From the NCBI RefSeq assembly GCF_054482525.1, contig NZ_CM137006.1: DNA of 64,000 nucleotides. One strand, written 5' to 3'. Each line of letters starts with the position of its first letter. Within the stretch, counting starts at the first letter, position 1. A program made the position numbers and the translations under genes. The notes beneath the pieces were generated by a model. The model made no database searches and was not told where the DNA came from. It saw nothing but the letters and a program-made list of their open reading frames with translations. Shown piece after piece: positions 2,428 to 29,090 of this stretch.

Positions 2428-3968
2428 AAATACGTTCGCAAGTCGGCATGGTGCTTAACCTCGATAAATGTATCGGCTGCCATACCTGTTCGGTGACCTG
2501 TAAAAACGTCTGGACCGGACGCGAAGGCATGGAGTACGCATGGTTTAACAACGTCGAAACCAAACCGGGCATTGGTTATCCGAAAAACTGGGAAGATCAG
2601 GAAGAGTGGCAAGGCGGCTGGGTGCGTGATGTGAATGGCAAGATCCGCCCGCGTCTGGGCAGCAAGATGGGCGTAATAACCAAAATCTTCGCCAACCCGG
2701 TGGTGCCGCAGATTGATGATTACTACGAACCTTTCACCTTCGACTACGAACATTTGCATAGCGCACCGGAAGGCAAACATATCCCTACTGCTCGCCCGCG
2801 TTCACTGATTGACGGCAAACGGATGGACAAAGTGATCTGGGGGCCAAACTGGGAAGAATTGTTGGGCGGCGAATTCGAAAAACGCGCCCGTGACCGCAAC
2901 TTCGAGGCCATGCAAAAGGAGATGTACGGGCAGTTTGAAAACACCTTCATGATGTACCTGCCGCGCCTGTGCGAACACTGCCTCAATCCCAGTTGCGTGG
3001 CAACCTGCCCAAGCGGCGCTATCTACAAACGCGAAGAAGACGGCATTGTGCTGATCGATCAGGATAAATGCCGTGGCTGGCGTTTGTGCATTAGCGGTTG
3101 TCCGTACAAAAAAATCTACTTCAACTGGAAAAGCGGCAAGTCAGAAAAATGTATCTTCTGTTACCCACGAATTGAGTCAGGCCAACCCACCGTGTGCTCA
3201 GAAACCTGCGTGGGTCGCATCCGGTATCTGGGCGTGCTGCTTTACGACGCCGACCGCATCGAGGAAGCGGCGAGCACCGAGCGCGAAGTTGACCTCTATG
3301 AACGCCAGTGCGAAGTGTTCCTCGATCCGCTCGATCCCTCAGTGATCGAAGAAGCCCTGAAACAAGGTATTCCACAAAACGTGATTGAAGCTGCTCAGCG
3401 TTCGCCAGTCTACAAAATGGCGATGGACTGGAAACTGGCGTTACCGCTGCACCCTGAATACCGCACCCTGCCGATGGTCTGGTACGTTCCTCCGCTGTCA
3501 CCGATTCAGTCTTACGCTGATGCGGGCGGCTTGCCGAAAAGCGAAGGCGTGCTGCCCGCCATCGAAAGCCTGCGTATTCCGGTGCAATATCTCGCCAATA
3601 TGTTGAGTGCCGGCGATACCGGTCCGGTACTGCGGGCGCTGAAACGGATGATGGCGATGCGCCACTATATGCGTTCACAAACCGTGGAAGGCGTTACCGA
3701 TACCCGCGCCATTGACGAAGTAGGCCTGAGCGTCGCCCAGGTCGAAGAGATGTATCGCTACTTCGCCATTGCCAACTATGAAGACCGTTTTGTCATTCCA
3801 ACCAGTCATCGGGAAATGGCGGGCGATGCCTTCGCAGAACGCAATGGCTGCGGTTTTACCTTTGGCGACGGTTGCCACGGCTCGGACAGCAAATTCAACC
3901 TGTTCAACAGTAGCCGTATCGATGCCATCAACATCACCGAAGTGCGCGACAAAGCGGAGGGCGAATAA
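2424..3968 (+). CDS. narY: Respiratory nitrate reductase 2 beta subunit (iron-sulfur)
   Basis: 514 aa; ATG overlaps the narZ stop (ATGA). Cys clusters typical of NarH-type Fe-S subunits are visible (CIGCHTCSVTC, CEHCLNPSCVATCP, CRGWRLCISGCP, CIFCYPR). Confidence 0.9.
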   Translation: MKIRSQVGMVLNLDKCIGCHTCSVTCKNVWTGREGMEYAWFNNVETKPGIGYPKNWEDQEEWQGGWVRDVNGKIRPRLGSKMGVITKIFANPVVPQIDDYYEPFTFDYEHLHSAPEGKHIPTARPRSLIDGKRMDKVIWGPNWEELLGGEFEKRARDRNFEAMQKEMYGQFENTFMMYLPRLCEHCLNPSCVATCPSGAIYKREEDGIVLIDQDKCRGWRLCISGCPYKKIYFNWKSGKSEKCIFCYPRIESGQPTVCSETCVGRIRYLGVLLYDADRIEEAASTEREVDLYERQCEVFLDPLDPSVIEEALKQGIPQNVIEAAQRSPVYKMAMDWKLALPLHPEYRTLPMVWYVPPLSPIQSYADAGGLPKSEGVLPAIESLRIPVQYLANMLSAGDTGPVLRALKRMMAMRHYMRSQTVEGVTDTRAIDEVGLSVAQVEEMYRYFAIANYEDRFVIPTSHREMAGDAFAERNGCGFTFGDGCHGSDSKFNLFNSSRIDAINITEVRDKAEGE

Positions 3969-25821: not shown

Positions 25822-26340
25822 ATGTCCATCCGTTTTGCCCGCAAAGCCGACTGTGCTGCCATTGCGGAAATTTATAACCACGCCGTGTTGTATACGGCGG
25901 CTATCTGGAATGACCAAACGGTGGATGCAGATAACCGCATTGCCTGGTTTGAAGCGCGGACCATAGCAGGTTATCCGGTGCTGGTGAGCGAAGAAGATGG
26001 CGTAGTGACGGGATATGCCTCGTTTGGCGACTGGCGTAGTTTCGATGGTTTTCGCCATACCGTGGAACATTCGGTTTATGTCCATCCCGATCATCAGGGC
26101 AAAGGTCTGGGGCGTAAATTGTTAAGCCGATTGATTGATGAAGCGCGGGATTGCGGGAAGCATGTCATGGTCGCCGGGATCGAATCGCAAAACCAGGCCT
26201 CGCTGCATCTCCACCAGACGCTGGGATTTGTCGTCACCGCACAAATGCCGCAGGTAGGCACTAAATTTGGTCGTTGGCTGGATCTGACATTTATGCAGTT
26301 GCAACTCGACGAGCGCACTGAACCGGACGCGATTGGATGA
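25822..26340 (+). CDS. mnaT: GNAT-family L-amino acid N-acyltransferase
   Basis: 172 aa; GNAT motifs; divergent from curA. Confidence 0.85.
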   Translation: MSIRFARKADCAAIAEIYNHAVLYTAAIWNDQTVDADNRIAWFEARTIAGYPVLVSEEDGVVTGYASFGDWRSFDGFRHTVEHSVYVHPDHQGKGLGRKLLSRLIDEARDCGKHVMVAGIESQNQASLHLHQTLGFVVTAQMPQVGTKFGRWLDLTFMQLQLDERTEPDAIG

Positions 26341-26786
26341 ATCAGTCGCTCACCCTTGCTTTTTTGATTGCCGCCGGAATTGGTCTGGTAGTCCAGAACA
26401 CGCTGATGGTGCGCATCACCCAGACCTCCTCTACCATTCTCATCGCCATGTTGCTGAACTCACTGGTGGGGATTGTGCTCTTTGTTTCTATTTTATGGTT
26501 TAAACAAGGTATGGCGGGGTTTGGCGAACTGGTGTCCAACGTGCGCTGGTGGACACTTATACCTGGCTTGCTGGGATCGTTTTTTGTCTTCGCCAGTATC
26601 AGCGGATATCAGAATGTGGGAGCGGCGACAACTATTGCGGTACTGGTCGCCAGCCAGCTGATTGGCGGTCTGGTGCTGGATATCTTCCGCAGCCATGGCG
26701 TACCACTACGGGCGTTGATCGGCCCAATTTGTGGCGCAATTTTACTTGTGGTTGGTGCCTGGCTGGTGGCCAGGCGCACATTTTAA
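26337..26786 (+). CDS. ydcZ: DUF606-family inner membrane protein
   Basis: 149 aa, hydrophobic; ATGA overlap with mnaT stop. Confidence 0.8.
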   Translation: MNQSLTLAFLIAAGIGLVVQNTLMVRITQTSSTILIAMLLNSLVGIVLFVSILWFKQGMAGFGELVSNVRWWTLIPGLLGSFFVFASISGYQNVGAATTIAVLVASQLIGGLVLDIFRSHGVPLRALIGPICGAILLVVGAWLVARRTF

Positions 26787-27020
26787 TCAGAGGATGGTGC
26801 CACCTTTGGTTAACTGTTCGTGGCGCGCTTCCATATCTTCTTTATGTTTGCGACCGTGATGGGCGATCGCTGTGCGCAGACGCTGCTGCTGGGTATAGCG
26901 ATCTTCCCGACTTAACTCCGCATCATCGCTCAGGGCGATTAATAATTCGTTCATATGGGCAATGACGCTCTCTTCAATCGCGGCATCCACGCGCGCGATG
27001 ACTTCATCCAGATGCGACAT
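26787..27020 (-). CDS. ydcY: Small uncharacterized protein (77 aa)
   Basis: 77-aa ORF at the conserved position. Confidence 0.7.
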   Translation of the reverse strand: MSHLDEVIARVDAAIEESVIAHMNELLIALSDDAELSREDRYTQQQRLRTAIAHHGRKHKEDMEARHEQLTKGGTIL

Positions 27021-27105
27021 ACTTTCTCCTTAGCCACTTGTGAAATTTATCGATTCATCCAAATGATATAAGTCTGCGTGGTGTCGTCAAGCCAGTAAGT
27101 AAGAT

Positions 27106-27279
27106 TTAAAACAGTGAAAACAACAGCGCCACCGGGAAACTCATCGGCCATGTTGCCCCCACCAGAAAGGCGCTTAAGAAACGGATGCGTTTCTTATCGT
27201 GAGAAAGAAACCAGGTGATAAGAAATGCGATTGCTGCCATAACCGCATAAAAAACAAGCATGTGTTGATAGAGAGACAT
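27106..27279 (-). CDS. ortT: Orphan small membrane toxin (GhoT-like)
   Basis: 57 aa from MSLYQHMLVFYAVMAAIAFLITWFLSHDKK...; two hydrophobic helices. The track ORF is extended 25 codons upstream. Confidence 0.7.
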   Translation of the reverse strand: MSLYQHMLVFYAVMAAIAFLITWFLSHDKKRIRFLSAFLVGATWPMSFPVALLFSLF

Positions 27280-27473
27280 GTACGGGCGTCCAGCCAGATG
27301 AATAAAACGCGCGCAAATATGCGTCATTTTTTGACGTGCATCAAGTTTTTTCACCAGTTTGAGAAAAAATCATCAAACAGCAACTTGCCCTTATCCATCT
27401 TCAGAATGAGTATTATTGCGGATTTTCTTAACCCGTACTATACACATAGGGGCAATGATAAAAGGTGGCAAAA

Positions 27474-27569
27474 ATGAATGTTTCCAGTAGAACTGTAGTA
27501 CTGATAAATGTCTTTGCTGCTGTTGGTTTGTTTACTCTTATCTCTATGAGATTTGGCTGGTTTATTTGA
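27474..27569 (+). CDS. yncL: 31-aa small membrane protein
   Basis: ATG at 27474: MNVSSRTVVLINVFAAVGLFTLISMRFGWFI*; single hydrophobic helix; not in the ORF track (below 60 aa). Confidence 0.6.
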   Translation: MNVSSRTVVLINVFAAVGLFTLISMRFGWFI

Positions 27570-27665
27570 TGTAGTGATTTTGCACGCAGCACGTACTGTC
27601 AGAGAAATCAGTGCTCTGACAGTACGCAAGATCATCTCATACTCTTACGATCTGCAATATTATCC

Positions 27666-29090
27666 TTAATGTTTAACCATGACGTGGCGGACGACGGTGT
27701 AATCCTCCAGCCCATAAAGTGACATATCCTTGCCGTAACCAGAAAGTTTCTGCCCACCGTGCGGCATTTCACTTACCAGCATGAAATGGGTATTGACCCA
27801 GGTACAACCATATTGCAGCCGCGCGCTGACGCGATGCGCCCTGCCCACATCTTTCGTCCATACCGAGGATGCAAGTCCGTACTGGCTGTCATTTGCCCAG
27901 TTTACCACCTGTTCTTCATTGTCGAAGAGCGTAACACTCACTACCGGACCAAATACCTCTTTTTGCACGATGGCATCGTCCTGTAATGCGCCAGCCAGTA
28001 GCGTCGGCGCATAGTAATAGCCATTACCCTTGAGCTTTTCACCGCCAGTGATCACTTTGATGTGCCCTGTCGCTTTCGCCTCTTCTACTGCCTTGCTGAC
28101 GCGTTCGAGATGCGCCAGCGAGCTTAAAGGTCCAAGCTCCGTAGACTCGTCATCCGGCGCACCAGATTTTAACGTTGCCACCGCAGCACCCAGTTTTTCC
28201 ACCAGCGTATCGTAAATGCCTTTTTGCGCGTAGATCCGACAAGCCGCAGTACAATCCTGTCCGGCATTGTAATAGCCAAATGTACGTACACCTTCGACCA
28301 CTGCTTCAATATCCGCATCATCAAAAACAATCACTGGCGCTTTGCCACCAAGTTCCATATGAGTACGCTTAATGGAGGGCGCGGTATGGCTGATGATGTG
28401 CTCGCCGGTGGCGATAGAGCCCGTCAGCGACACCATCCGCACTTTGGGATGACCGGTCAGCGGATCGCCCACCGTTTTGCCTCTGCCAAACAGTACGTTA
28501 ATCACGCCTGCCGGGAAGATATCTTTCGCCAGCTCTGCTAACTTCAACGCGGTCAGCGGGGTAATTTCTGATGGTTTAAGCACTACACAGTTCCCTGCCG
28601 CCAGCGCCGGAGCCAGTTTCCACGCGGCCATCATCAGCGGATAATTCCACGGTGCGATCGAAGCCACGACCCCCAACGGATCGCGACGGATCATCGAAGT
28701 ATGACCTTCAAGATATTCACCTGCCGCCAGACCATTCATACAGCGCGCCGCACCAGCGAAAAAGCGAAAAACATCGACAATCGCCGGGATTTCATCATTG
28801 AACGCACTATGCAGCGGTTTGCCACAATTACGGGACTCCAGTTCGGCAAAAACCTGACCATTTTCTTCGATAACATCAGCCAGTTTCAGCAGACATTCCG
28901 CACGCACTTTCGGCGTGGTTTGCCCCCATTCGGCAAATGCTGCATCTGCCGCGCGCACAGCAGCATCGACCTGCTCTGCGGATGCCTCGGCAATCTCCAG
29001 TAAAACGTCCCCCGTTGCCGGATTATAGACAGGCTGTTTTTCCCCTTCGCCGCTAACCAGTTCTCCGTTAATCAGTAACTTATGTTGCAT
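27666..29090 (-). CDS. patD: Gamma-aminobutyraldehyde dehydrogenase (aldehyde dehydrogenase family)
   Basis: 474 aa; ALDH motifs including the catalytic Cys region. Confidence 0.9.

Follow-up and report, generated by a model that had tools for sequence, protein, structure and literature searches.

The segment at positions 27106–27569 of the window, by which we mean the entire 64-kb stretch of DNA analyzed (64,000 nucleotides), contains two very small genes for membrane proteins, ortT and yncL. The evidence presented below allows us to state with high confidence that both belong to the Escherichia coli core genome as independent single-gene units passed on by vertical inheritance, that they are the known genes of these names, and that they diverge from a 194-bp spacer. 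RefSeq already annotates both, and experimental papers have been devoted to each of them; as a discovery the locus is unimportant. What is modestly new is the quantitative selection evidence for both short frames over longer alternatives, the evolutionary separability of ortT and yncL, a conserved and covarying hairpin 3' of yncL, and the placement of a "silent" FNR site as an integral and deeply conserved part of the ortT promoter module. The locus is also useful as a calibration case. The original prediction, which was made by reading the DNA without tools, found a 31-codon gene missed by callers of open reading frames (ORFs), chose the correct 57-codon start of ortT that such callers extend, and rejected a longer antisense ORF.

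Identity of the locus and of the two genes

The window originates from E. coli, as a 921-bp query across the locus was 100% identical to strain PCN033; the same query found a match in 5,415 of 5,426 complete E. coli genomes. The RefSeq annotation of PCN033 places ortT and yncL exactly at the positions mapping to 27106–27279 and 27474–27569. The two start codons are on opposite strands, divergent and 194 bp apart, and the pair is located between ydcY and patD, in agreement with the original prediction, which had put both frames within 200 bp of each other between these neighbors and whose coordinates and statements on the locus all proved correct. The 464-bp segment encompassing ortT and yncL occurs in 99.8% of the complete E. 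coli genomes, each match being at least 95% identical, and both genes were annotated in all full-length rows sampled from these matches. About 19% of the complete genomes fall in the 95–99% identity band for this segment.

Comparison with MG1655 revealed three substitutions in the 645 bp between ydcY and patD. The DNA of ortT and of the whole ortT–yncL spacer is identical in the two strains, and the YncL peptide differs at V13 only; hence the published experiments on K-12 apply directly. The K-12 ortT locus has the same neighbors and the same RefSeq product name as that of the window; the gene itself is no different, and what differs is the strain background.

The ortT coding sequence (27106..27279, minus strand) begins with the ATG at 27279, comprises 57 codons and a stop, and specifies a two-helix membrane toxin of the GhoT/OrtT family with the sequence MSLYQHMLVFYAVMAAIAFLITWFLSHDKKRIRFLSAFLVGATWPMSFPVALLFSLF. 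Pfam model PF10753 (Toxin_GhoT_OrtT) matched it with 96.9 bits against a cut-off of 22.1 (E=8.3e-28), with residues 4–57 aligned to positions 1–55 of the 55-position profile, and RefSeq names the product "orphan toxin OrtT". The average hydropathy (GRAVY) is 1.11, with two hydrophobic maxima flanking a basic loop, H27-D28-K29-K30-R31-I32-R33 (HDKKRIR). K-12 GhoT (b4559), the toxin of the type V GhoT/GhoS system, belongs to the same Pfam family, has the same length of 57 residues and the same two-helix layout with a basic loop, and is 63% identical to OrtT without gaps, the two sharing the C-terminal motif TWPMS.PVALLFSLF. The GhoT-like toxin frame proposed from the DNA alone is thus identified as OrtT by the full-length PF10753 match, the identity with GhoT and the DNA identity with K-12, in which OrtT (YdcX, b1445) was described as an "orphan toxin related to tetrahydrofolate" from the same coding sequence and spacer DNA (Islam, Benedik and Wood, 2015; PMC4344625).

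The yncL coding sequence (27474..27569, plus strand; ATG, 31 codons and a stop) specifies a single-helix stress-response membrane peptide, MNVSSRTVVLINVFAAVGLFTLISMRFGWFI. The NCBIfam equivalog model NF000537 for YncL matched it with 72.5 bits against a cut-off of 35 (E=1.8e-20; residues 1–30 on positions 1–30 of the 30-position profile), and PF28073 has precomputed matches on the Salmonella and Citrobacter orthologs. Thirty of the 31 residues are the same as in K-12 YncL (b4598), the difference being V13 (GTC, 27510–27512) versus F13 (TTC). Among orthologs this residue varies between V, L, I and F; the published K-12 experiments on YncL used the slightly different F13 peptide. The GRAVY value is 1.39, and the one helix is flanked by R6 and R26, as expected of the single-helix peptide that had been predicted. 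The match is of equivalog level, and the gene occupies the same position and orientation as K-12 yncL and as the Salmonella locus STnc1110. As the original prediction had pointed out, yncL is invisible to the ORF track. The default cut-off there is 60 amino acids; when the region was listed at 20 amino acids or more, it appeared only as a 34-residue ORF with a GTG start (27465..27569).

Selection on the two short frames

To compare the frames quantitatively, ratios of nonsynonymous to synonymous substitution rates (dN/dS) were calculated by the pooled Nei–Gojobori method from 30–31 distinct orthologous sequences of Escherichia, Citrobacter, Salmonella and Intestinirhabdus. The values were 0.059 for ortT, with 29, 13 and 51 variable columns at the first, second and third codon positions, and 0.113 for yncL, with 10, 7 and 27. 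The remaining five frames of each gene gave values of 0.19–4.2, all higher than that of the real frame, and we conclude that the ortT and yncL frames are under purifying selection. The 57-codon ATG frame of ortT is intact in 30 of 31 syntenic loci. The exception is Citrobacter amalonaticus AUH_CA_2023_1 (locus L018, ~3135–3306), in which a frameshift after codon 38 leads into an aberrant frame of 88 amino acids; either a genuine pseudogene or a fault of the assembly may lie behind this.

For yncL, one genome per species was scanned with an alignment of three YncL sequences, which yielded 54 loci in species-representative genomes. An ATG frame of 30–31 codons preceded by a purine-rich ribosome-binding site (RBS) was intact in all 54. 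The original prediction had named loss or disruption of the frames in close relatives as grounds for refutation, and with these results both frames withstood that test. It has to be held against this result that the search patterns included MNVSS[KR]TVV, such that the invariance of the YncL N terminus is partly by construction; the conservation of the C-terminal motif [RK][FY].WF was not imposed by the patterns.

These data also bear on the longer ORFs of the region. The ORF tool lists ortT only as an 82-residue ORF with a GTG start (27106..27354, minus strand), and an ORF of 65 amino acids with an ATG start lies antisense to yncL (27438..27635, minus strand). Both are open in the window, and many automatic database annotations carry N-terminally extended versions of OrtT of 63–97 amino acids; either or both ORFs might accordingly be taken as real. 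We consider this the least probable of all the readings weighed here and give it next to no credence. PF10753 covers only residues 29–82 of the 82-residue ORF, leaving the in-frame extension (27280..27354, minus strand) outside the family model; it is no part of the gene. Orthologs have anywhere between 0 and 50 open codons in frame ahead of the ortT ATG, and in eight loci the ATG directly follows a stop; the 82-residue version is therefore an artifact. The 65-residue antisense ORF had been dismissed as spurious in the original prediction, and it is: it has no family match among the Pfam and NCBIfam models, its frame has a dN/dS of 1.32, and the open stretch ranges from 19 to 89 codons among the genomes, being interrupted by stops in several species where it overlaps yncL.

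ortT and yncL are separable neighbors

Twenty-nine loci of species-representative genomes, spread over four genera (Escherichia, Citrobacter, Salmonella and Intestinirhabdus), contain both genes in divergent orientation and 189–198 nt apart. This near-constant spacing, together with the fact that both products are small inner-membrane proteins, raises the idea of a functional two-gene module, for example of a toxin accompanied by a small modulator or antidote in the membrane; OrtT would then be an orphan in appearance only. It also speaks for such a module that what Islam et al. cloned was the intergenic RNA; the coding sequence of yncL was left to a genomic library of ~3-fold coverage (PMC4344625). 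However, 25 further species possess a bona fide YncL with no ortT, patD or ydcY within 3.5 kb and no neighborhood in common with the window. These belong to Enterobacter, Lelliottia, Leclercia, Pseudescherichia, Silvania, Huaxiibacter and Pseudenterobacter, and their 30-residue peptides all score above the equivalog cut-off (52–67 bits). The contexts are unrelated: in Leclercia yncL is located between thrS and a DUF481/pfkB pair, and in Pseudescherichia between a LysE transporter and a phosphatase. Conversely, ortT without a nearby YncL homolog was found in Kosakonia, in Buttiauxella and in two further lineages. Kosakonia has two tandem copies of ortT, and in Buttiauxella a DUF1508 gene occupies the position of yncL. 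The conserved elements of the spacer likewise form two groups on either side of a hypervariable middle, one close to ortT that accompanies this gene and one close to yncL. Furthermore, YncL alone depolarizes the membrane and does not protect it (PMC12542507), and the genomic-library screen gave no antitoxin (PMC4344625). A module of the two genes is therefore very improbable. Nothing beyond adjacency links ortT and yncL; they are independent neighbors and not a pair, and we regard their adjacency as a feature of the Escherichia–Citrobacter–Salmonella clade and not as a functional requirement.

The relocated yncL orthologs (L038–L062; for example L054, 3501–3590, and L040, 3501–3590) have their own conserved upstream element, GCTCGCAAT...GAGCTATTCTTGAAC; the tiny gene moved together with its promoter. 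Two ortT-family genes close to each other were observed at L005 (3010–3183 and 3270–3443) and at L065 (597–770 and 1543–1716).

The surroundings of ortT differ on its downstream side as well. The DUF2526 gene ydcY is confined to Escherichia loci, and in Salmonella and Citrobacter (L002/L003, 3185–5363) the downstream neighbor of ortT is a large gene pair of the Virul_Fac/SrfB type; these differing neighbors indicate that ortT sits at a synteny break. YdcY was considered as a conserved partner of OrtT and was rejected because of its restriction to Escherichia loci and a negative result in the published antitoxin test (PMC4344625).

An orphan toxin without a recognizable antitoxin

In contrast to ghoT, ortT has no gene for a GhoS-type endoribonuclease antitoxin adjoining it or elsewhere in the 64-kb window, where a tblastn search with K-12 GhoS returned nothing below E=2.4. 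As its neighbors are ydcY and yncL, OrtT is an orphan member of its family and not part of a type V system. Published work with K-12 has demonstrated that induced OrtT is toxic and causes lysis, loss of ATP and increased persistence (PMC4344625), the over-produced protein damaging the inner membrane and leading to collapse of the proton-motive force and of the ATP pool and to slowed growth. The membrane damage has been reported as alike for GhoT and OrtT, and the toxicity of OrtT is not neutralized by YdcY, GhoS, flanking RNA or a genomic library (PMC4344625). From the over-expression of the identical K-12 protein, membrane damage and growth arrest would be expected of the OrtT encoded here.

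The membrane toxins of type I systems (Hok, TisB, Ldr and Ibs) are likewise small, hydrophobic peptides of the inner membrane that dissipate the membrane potential when over-produced, and in this respect OrtT and YncL resemble them. Unlike in those systems, no antisense RNA gene, structured leader or Rfam match was found at ortT or yncL, and flanking RNA does not neutralize OrtT (PMC4344625). An Rfam scan of 26000–28500 at E<=1 gave no match, hence no known small RNA (sRNA) or riboswitch family nor any STnc1110 model. The leader of ortT and its 3' spacer fold no better than shuffled sequences (z of +1.0 and +0.5, respectively), and the consensus scan showed no promoter-like site on the plus strand antisense to ortT. 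The scan flagged three weak terminator-like hairpins, including one at 27307–27324. This hairpin was examined as a terminator of an ortT-antisense RNA and rejected, as other genera keep the sequence and not the pairing.

An FNR box within a putative ortT promoter

Alignment of 18 ortT–yncL spacers revealed conservation at both ends and a hypervariable middle. The conserved ortT-proximal end consists of ACGCGCGC-AATATGC and the palindrome TTGACGTGCATCAA. The latter, at 27331..27344 and assigned to neither strand, is an FNR box with 9 of 10 matches to TTGAT-N4-ATCAA, and its center is 58.5 nt upstream of the ortT ATG. The box was found in all 31 syntenic spacers with its center 55–61 nt from the ATG and with a core that is exact or one-off in every one; perfect sites occur in several genera. 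A perfect FNR site at the same distance, followed by a 9-nt gap, CATATT and a GC-rich block, also precedes the ortT genes that lack yncL (Kosakonia and the two other lineages; L065–70). Upstream of the 25 yncL genes without ortT there is no FNR box, just one-mismatch matches at chance level. As the box stays with ortT, and not with yncL, where the genes are apart, it belongs to ortT. The upstream regions of Buttiauxella ortT and of the divergent second ortT paralogs are without the box; where two copies occur, the one nearer to E. coli OrtT keeps the FNR-box module, and the divergent copy (61–65% identity) is without it. In all ortT lineages examined that have the box, GCATATT and its 9-nt spacing from the box are invariant. 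Overall, at least seven enterobacterial lineages have this candidate promoter module at a constant distance from ortT, irrespective of the upstream content.

The box coincides with published FNR-binding sites. In chromatin immunoprecipitation (ChIP) on microarrays, the site assigned to ydcX is AAAACTTGATGCACGTCAAAAAAT, exactly the box at 27331–27344 (PMC1802558), and the same box accounts for the strong yncL/ydcX peak in the FNR ChIP-seq data of Myers et al. (PMC3688515, Tables S5–S7). Judged from the DNA alone, the likely ortT promoter spans 27316..27344 on the minus strand: TTGATG (27344..27339) would serve as the −35 element, which lies in the promoter-distal half of the FNR box, and would be followed by a 17-nt spacer and CATATT (27321..27316) as the −10 element, giving a sigma-70-type promoter with the center of the box at about −28.5. 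This promoter was not flagged in the consensus promoter scan, and the same bases can be read as a sigma-32-like alternative, CTTGATG-N14-ACGCATAT. Between the presumed −10 element and the start site is a GC-rich block, TGCGCGCG (27308..27315, minus strand); ACGCGCGC is conserved across genera, and the block may act as a discriminator. The GCGCGCG following the presumed −10 element resembles a discriminator of the kind usually associated with negative stringent control. A sigma-E promoter (GGAACTT-N16-TCAAA) was sought in the spacer by eye and rejected, as AAAACTT and TCAAA are just 8 nt apart.

Since the FNR box overlaps the −35 element, the geometry predicts FNR repression of ortT and suggests that FNR occludes the promoter. 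An 11.85-fold increase in ydcX expression in anaerobic, nitrate/nitric oxide (NO)-exposed CFT073 (PMC5320621) is consistent with such repression. In the scheme we propose, ortT, as a GhoT paralog without a GhoS-type antitoxin, would presumably be controlled at the level of transcription; active FNR would hold it off during anaerobiosis, oxygen or NO would release it, and a weak RBS of the GGA type would keep translation low. Unlike ghoT, ortT stands alone as a gene and has an FNR box in the region of its promoter. On this basis we put forward, tentatively and as a possibility a little short of an even chance, that ortT is a directly FNR-gated toxin gene whose expression is decided by inactivation of FNR through oxygen or NO and not by an antitoxin or by predicted sigma-E and sigma-H promoters.

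Several points weigh against this proposal. The yncL/ydcX peak is listed among those without an FNR-dependent change of expression in glucose minimal medium (PMC3688515, Table S9), and the ortT model in the literature relies on sigma-E and sigma-H promoters that were predicted, together with guanosine tetraphosphate (ppGpp). The GC-rich block would normally argue against positive stringent control, at odds with the claimed induction of ortT by ppGpp. The repression step itself is derived from geometry and conservation only, and the arrangement may alternatively be that of class II activation, with the FNR box at −41.5. More generally, for both genes the statements on toxicity and depolarization come from published over-expression from plasmids, and native roles are weakly defined. 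The discoverers of OrtT had asked how a toxin without an antitoxin stays silent, and the conserved FNR box offers a testable answer; if true, FNR gating would assign a role to a strong FNR ChIP peak described since 2007 as having "no effect".

The hypervariable middle of the spacer (27350–27405) differs even among E. coli strains, which fall into two clearly distinct haplotypes.

Expression of yncL and the coding nature of its transcript

The yncL-proximal end of the spacer has its own conserved elements, TATTGCGGA and CGTACTATAC, which are near-invariant over the four genera. They point to a promoter of the sigma-S type at 27416..27444 (plus strand), with TTGCGG (27416–27421) as the −35 element, a 17-nt spacer, a C at −13 (27438) and TATACA (27439–27444) as the −10 element. 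It was not flagged by the consensus promoter scan. Selection of bound DNA in vitro (SELEX) with the RpoS holoenzyme gave a high-intensity peak within the yncL/ydcX spacer (PMC5493296), a translational yncL–lacZ fusion is expressed in Salmonella and requires sigma-S (PMC5437024), and an element of their own, GCTATTCTTGA, accompanies the relocated yncL genes in Enterobacter-type genomes. We infer from the agreement of these three lines that yncL has its own sigma-S-type promoter, the reported sigma-S dependence in Salmonella matching the promoter type seen in the window. The RBS, AAGGTGG (27462..27468, plus strand), is located 5 nt before the ATG, and an A/GGGTGG-type RBS is kept in 29 of 29 syntenic loci.

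A stem-loop 3' of yncL (27593..27625, plus strand) has a perfect stem of 12 bp and a 9-nt loop, and is enclosed by an outer helix of 27574–27583 with 27626–27635. The minimum free energy is −31.3 kcal/mol (z=−3.3), and none of 200 shuffled sequences folds as well. A strong hairpin is present at this place in 30 of 31 syntenic loci; the stem sequence differs among Escherichia, Citrobacter and Salmonella, and four pairs show compensatory double changes among seven Escherichia sequences. In E. coli the hairpin has no following T-run and faces the 3' end of the convergent patD. The patD–yncL pair is listed among overlapping transcript pairs detected by RNA-seq, as an "excludon" (PMC12288877). The hairpin is probably the 3' end or a stabilizer of the yncL transcript; with no T-run behind it in E. 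coli, a terminator function is putative.

A short transcript with a structured 3' end could also be that of a primarily non-coding sRNA in which the 31-codon frame is incidental. In Salmonella the locus was originally recorded as an sRNA, STnc1110, and no FLAG-tagged product could be detected in that organism (PMC5437024); in sRNA interactome data, yncL is among the partners of RprA and KilS. Against this, the frame has a dN/dS of 0.11 and varies mostly at third codon positions, and the ATG, the frame length and a strong RBS are kept in all 54 loci, even in unrelated contexts. The lacZ fusion expressed in Salmonella was a translational one (PMC5437024), in E. coli the protein itself has been observed and investigated (Hemm 2008/2010, cited after PMC12542507), and tagged YncL is a substrate of RseP that is cleaved in vivo (PMC10470546). 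No Rfam family matches, and in the interactome data the yncL mRNA behaves as a target of RprA and KilS. We therefore find it hardly credible that yncL is primarily an sRNA gene and treat it as protein-coding.

YncL is induced in minimal medium, in stationary phase and by heat shock, and production of the K-12 protein results in sublethal membrane depolarization, nucleoid condensation and sensitivity to pore-forming peptides (PMC12542507). In these features it resembles YohP and other single-helix, stress-induced E. coli peptides, which have ~30 residues and one helix, are associated with stationary phase or stress, and likewise cause sublethal depolarization and nucleoid condensation when produced (PMC12542507). 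The YohP-type peptides have no sequence homology to YncL and represent a different family at a different locus. With a sigma-S-type promoter, a strong RBS and a 3' stem-loop, yncL would be expressed in stationary phase and under stress, and the peptide, once made, would depolarize the membrane to a sublethal extent.

Flanking genes and minor observations

The flanking frames are both on the minus strand, ydcY at 26787..27020, encoding the DUF2526 protein YdcY, and patD at 27666..29090, encoding the 474-residue aldehyde dehydrogenase PatD. No match was obtained for OrtT, YncL or YdcY among the PADLOC defense models. A terminator between ortT and ydcY was sought and no terminator-like structure was found there. 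The sole good match to the sigma-70 consensus in the region, TTGACG-16-TATCAT (10 of 12), is located between these two genes at 27090->27063 (minus strand) and faces ydcY. Among the genome matches to the chromosomal segment 27106–27569, six to eight are carried by records labeled as plasmids. In genome MSB1_4I the ortT–yncL segment is split over two places, which suggests an insertion or rearrangement inside the segment.

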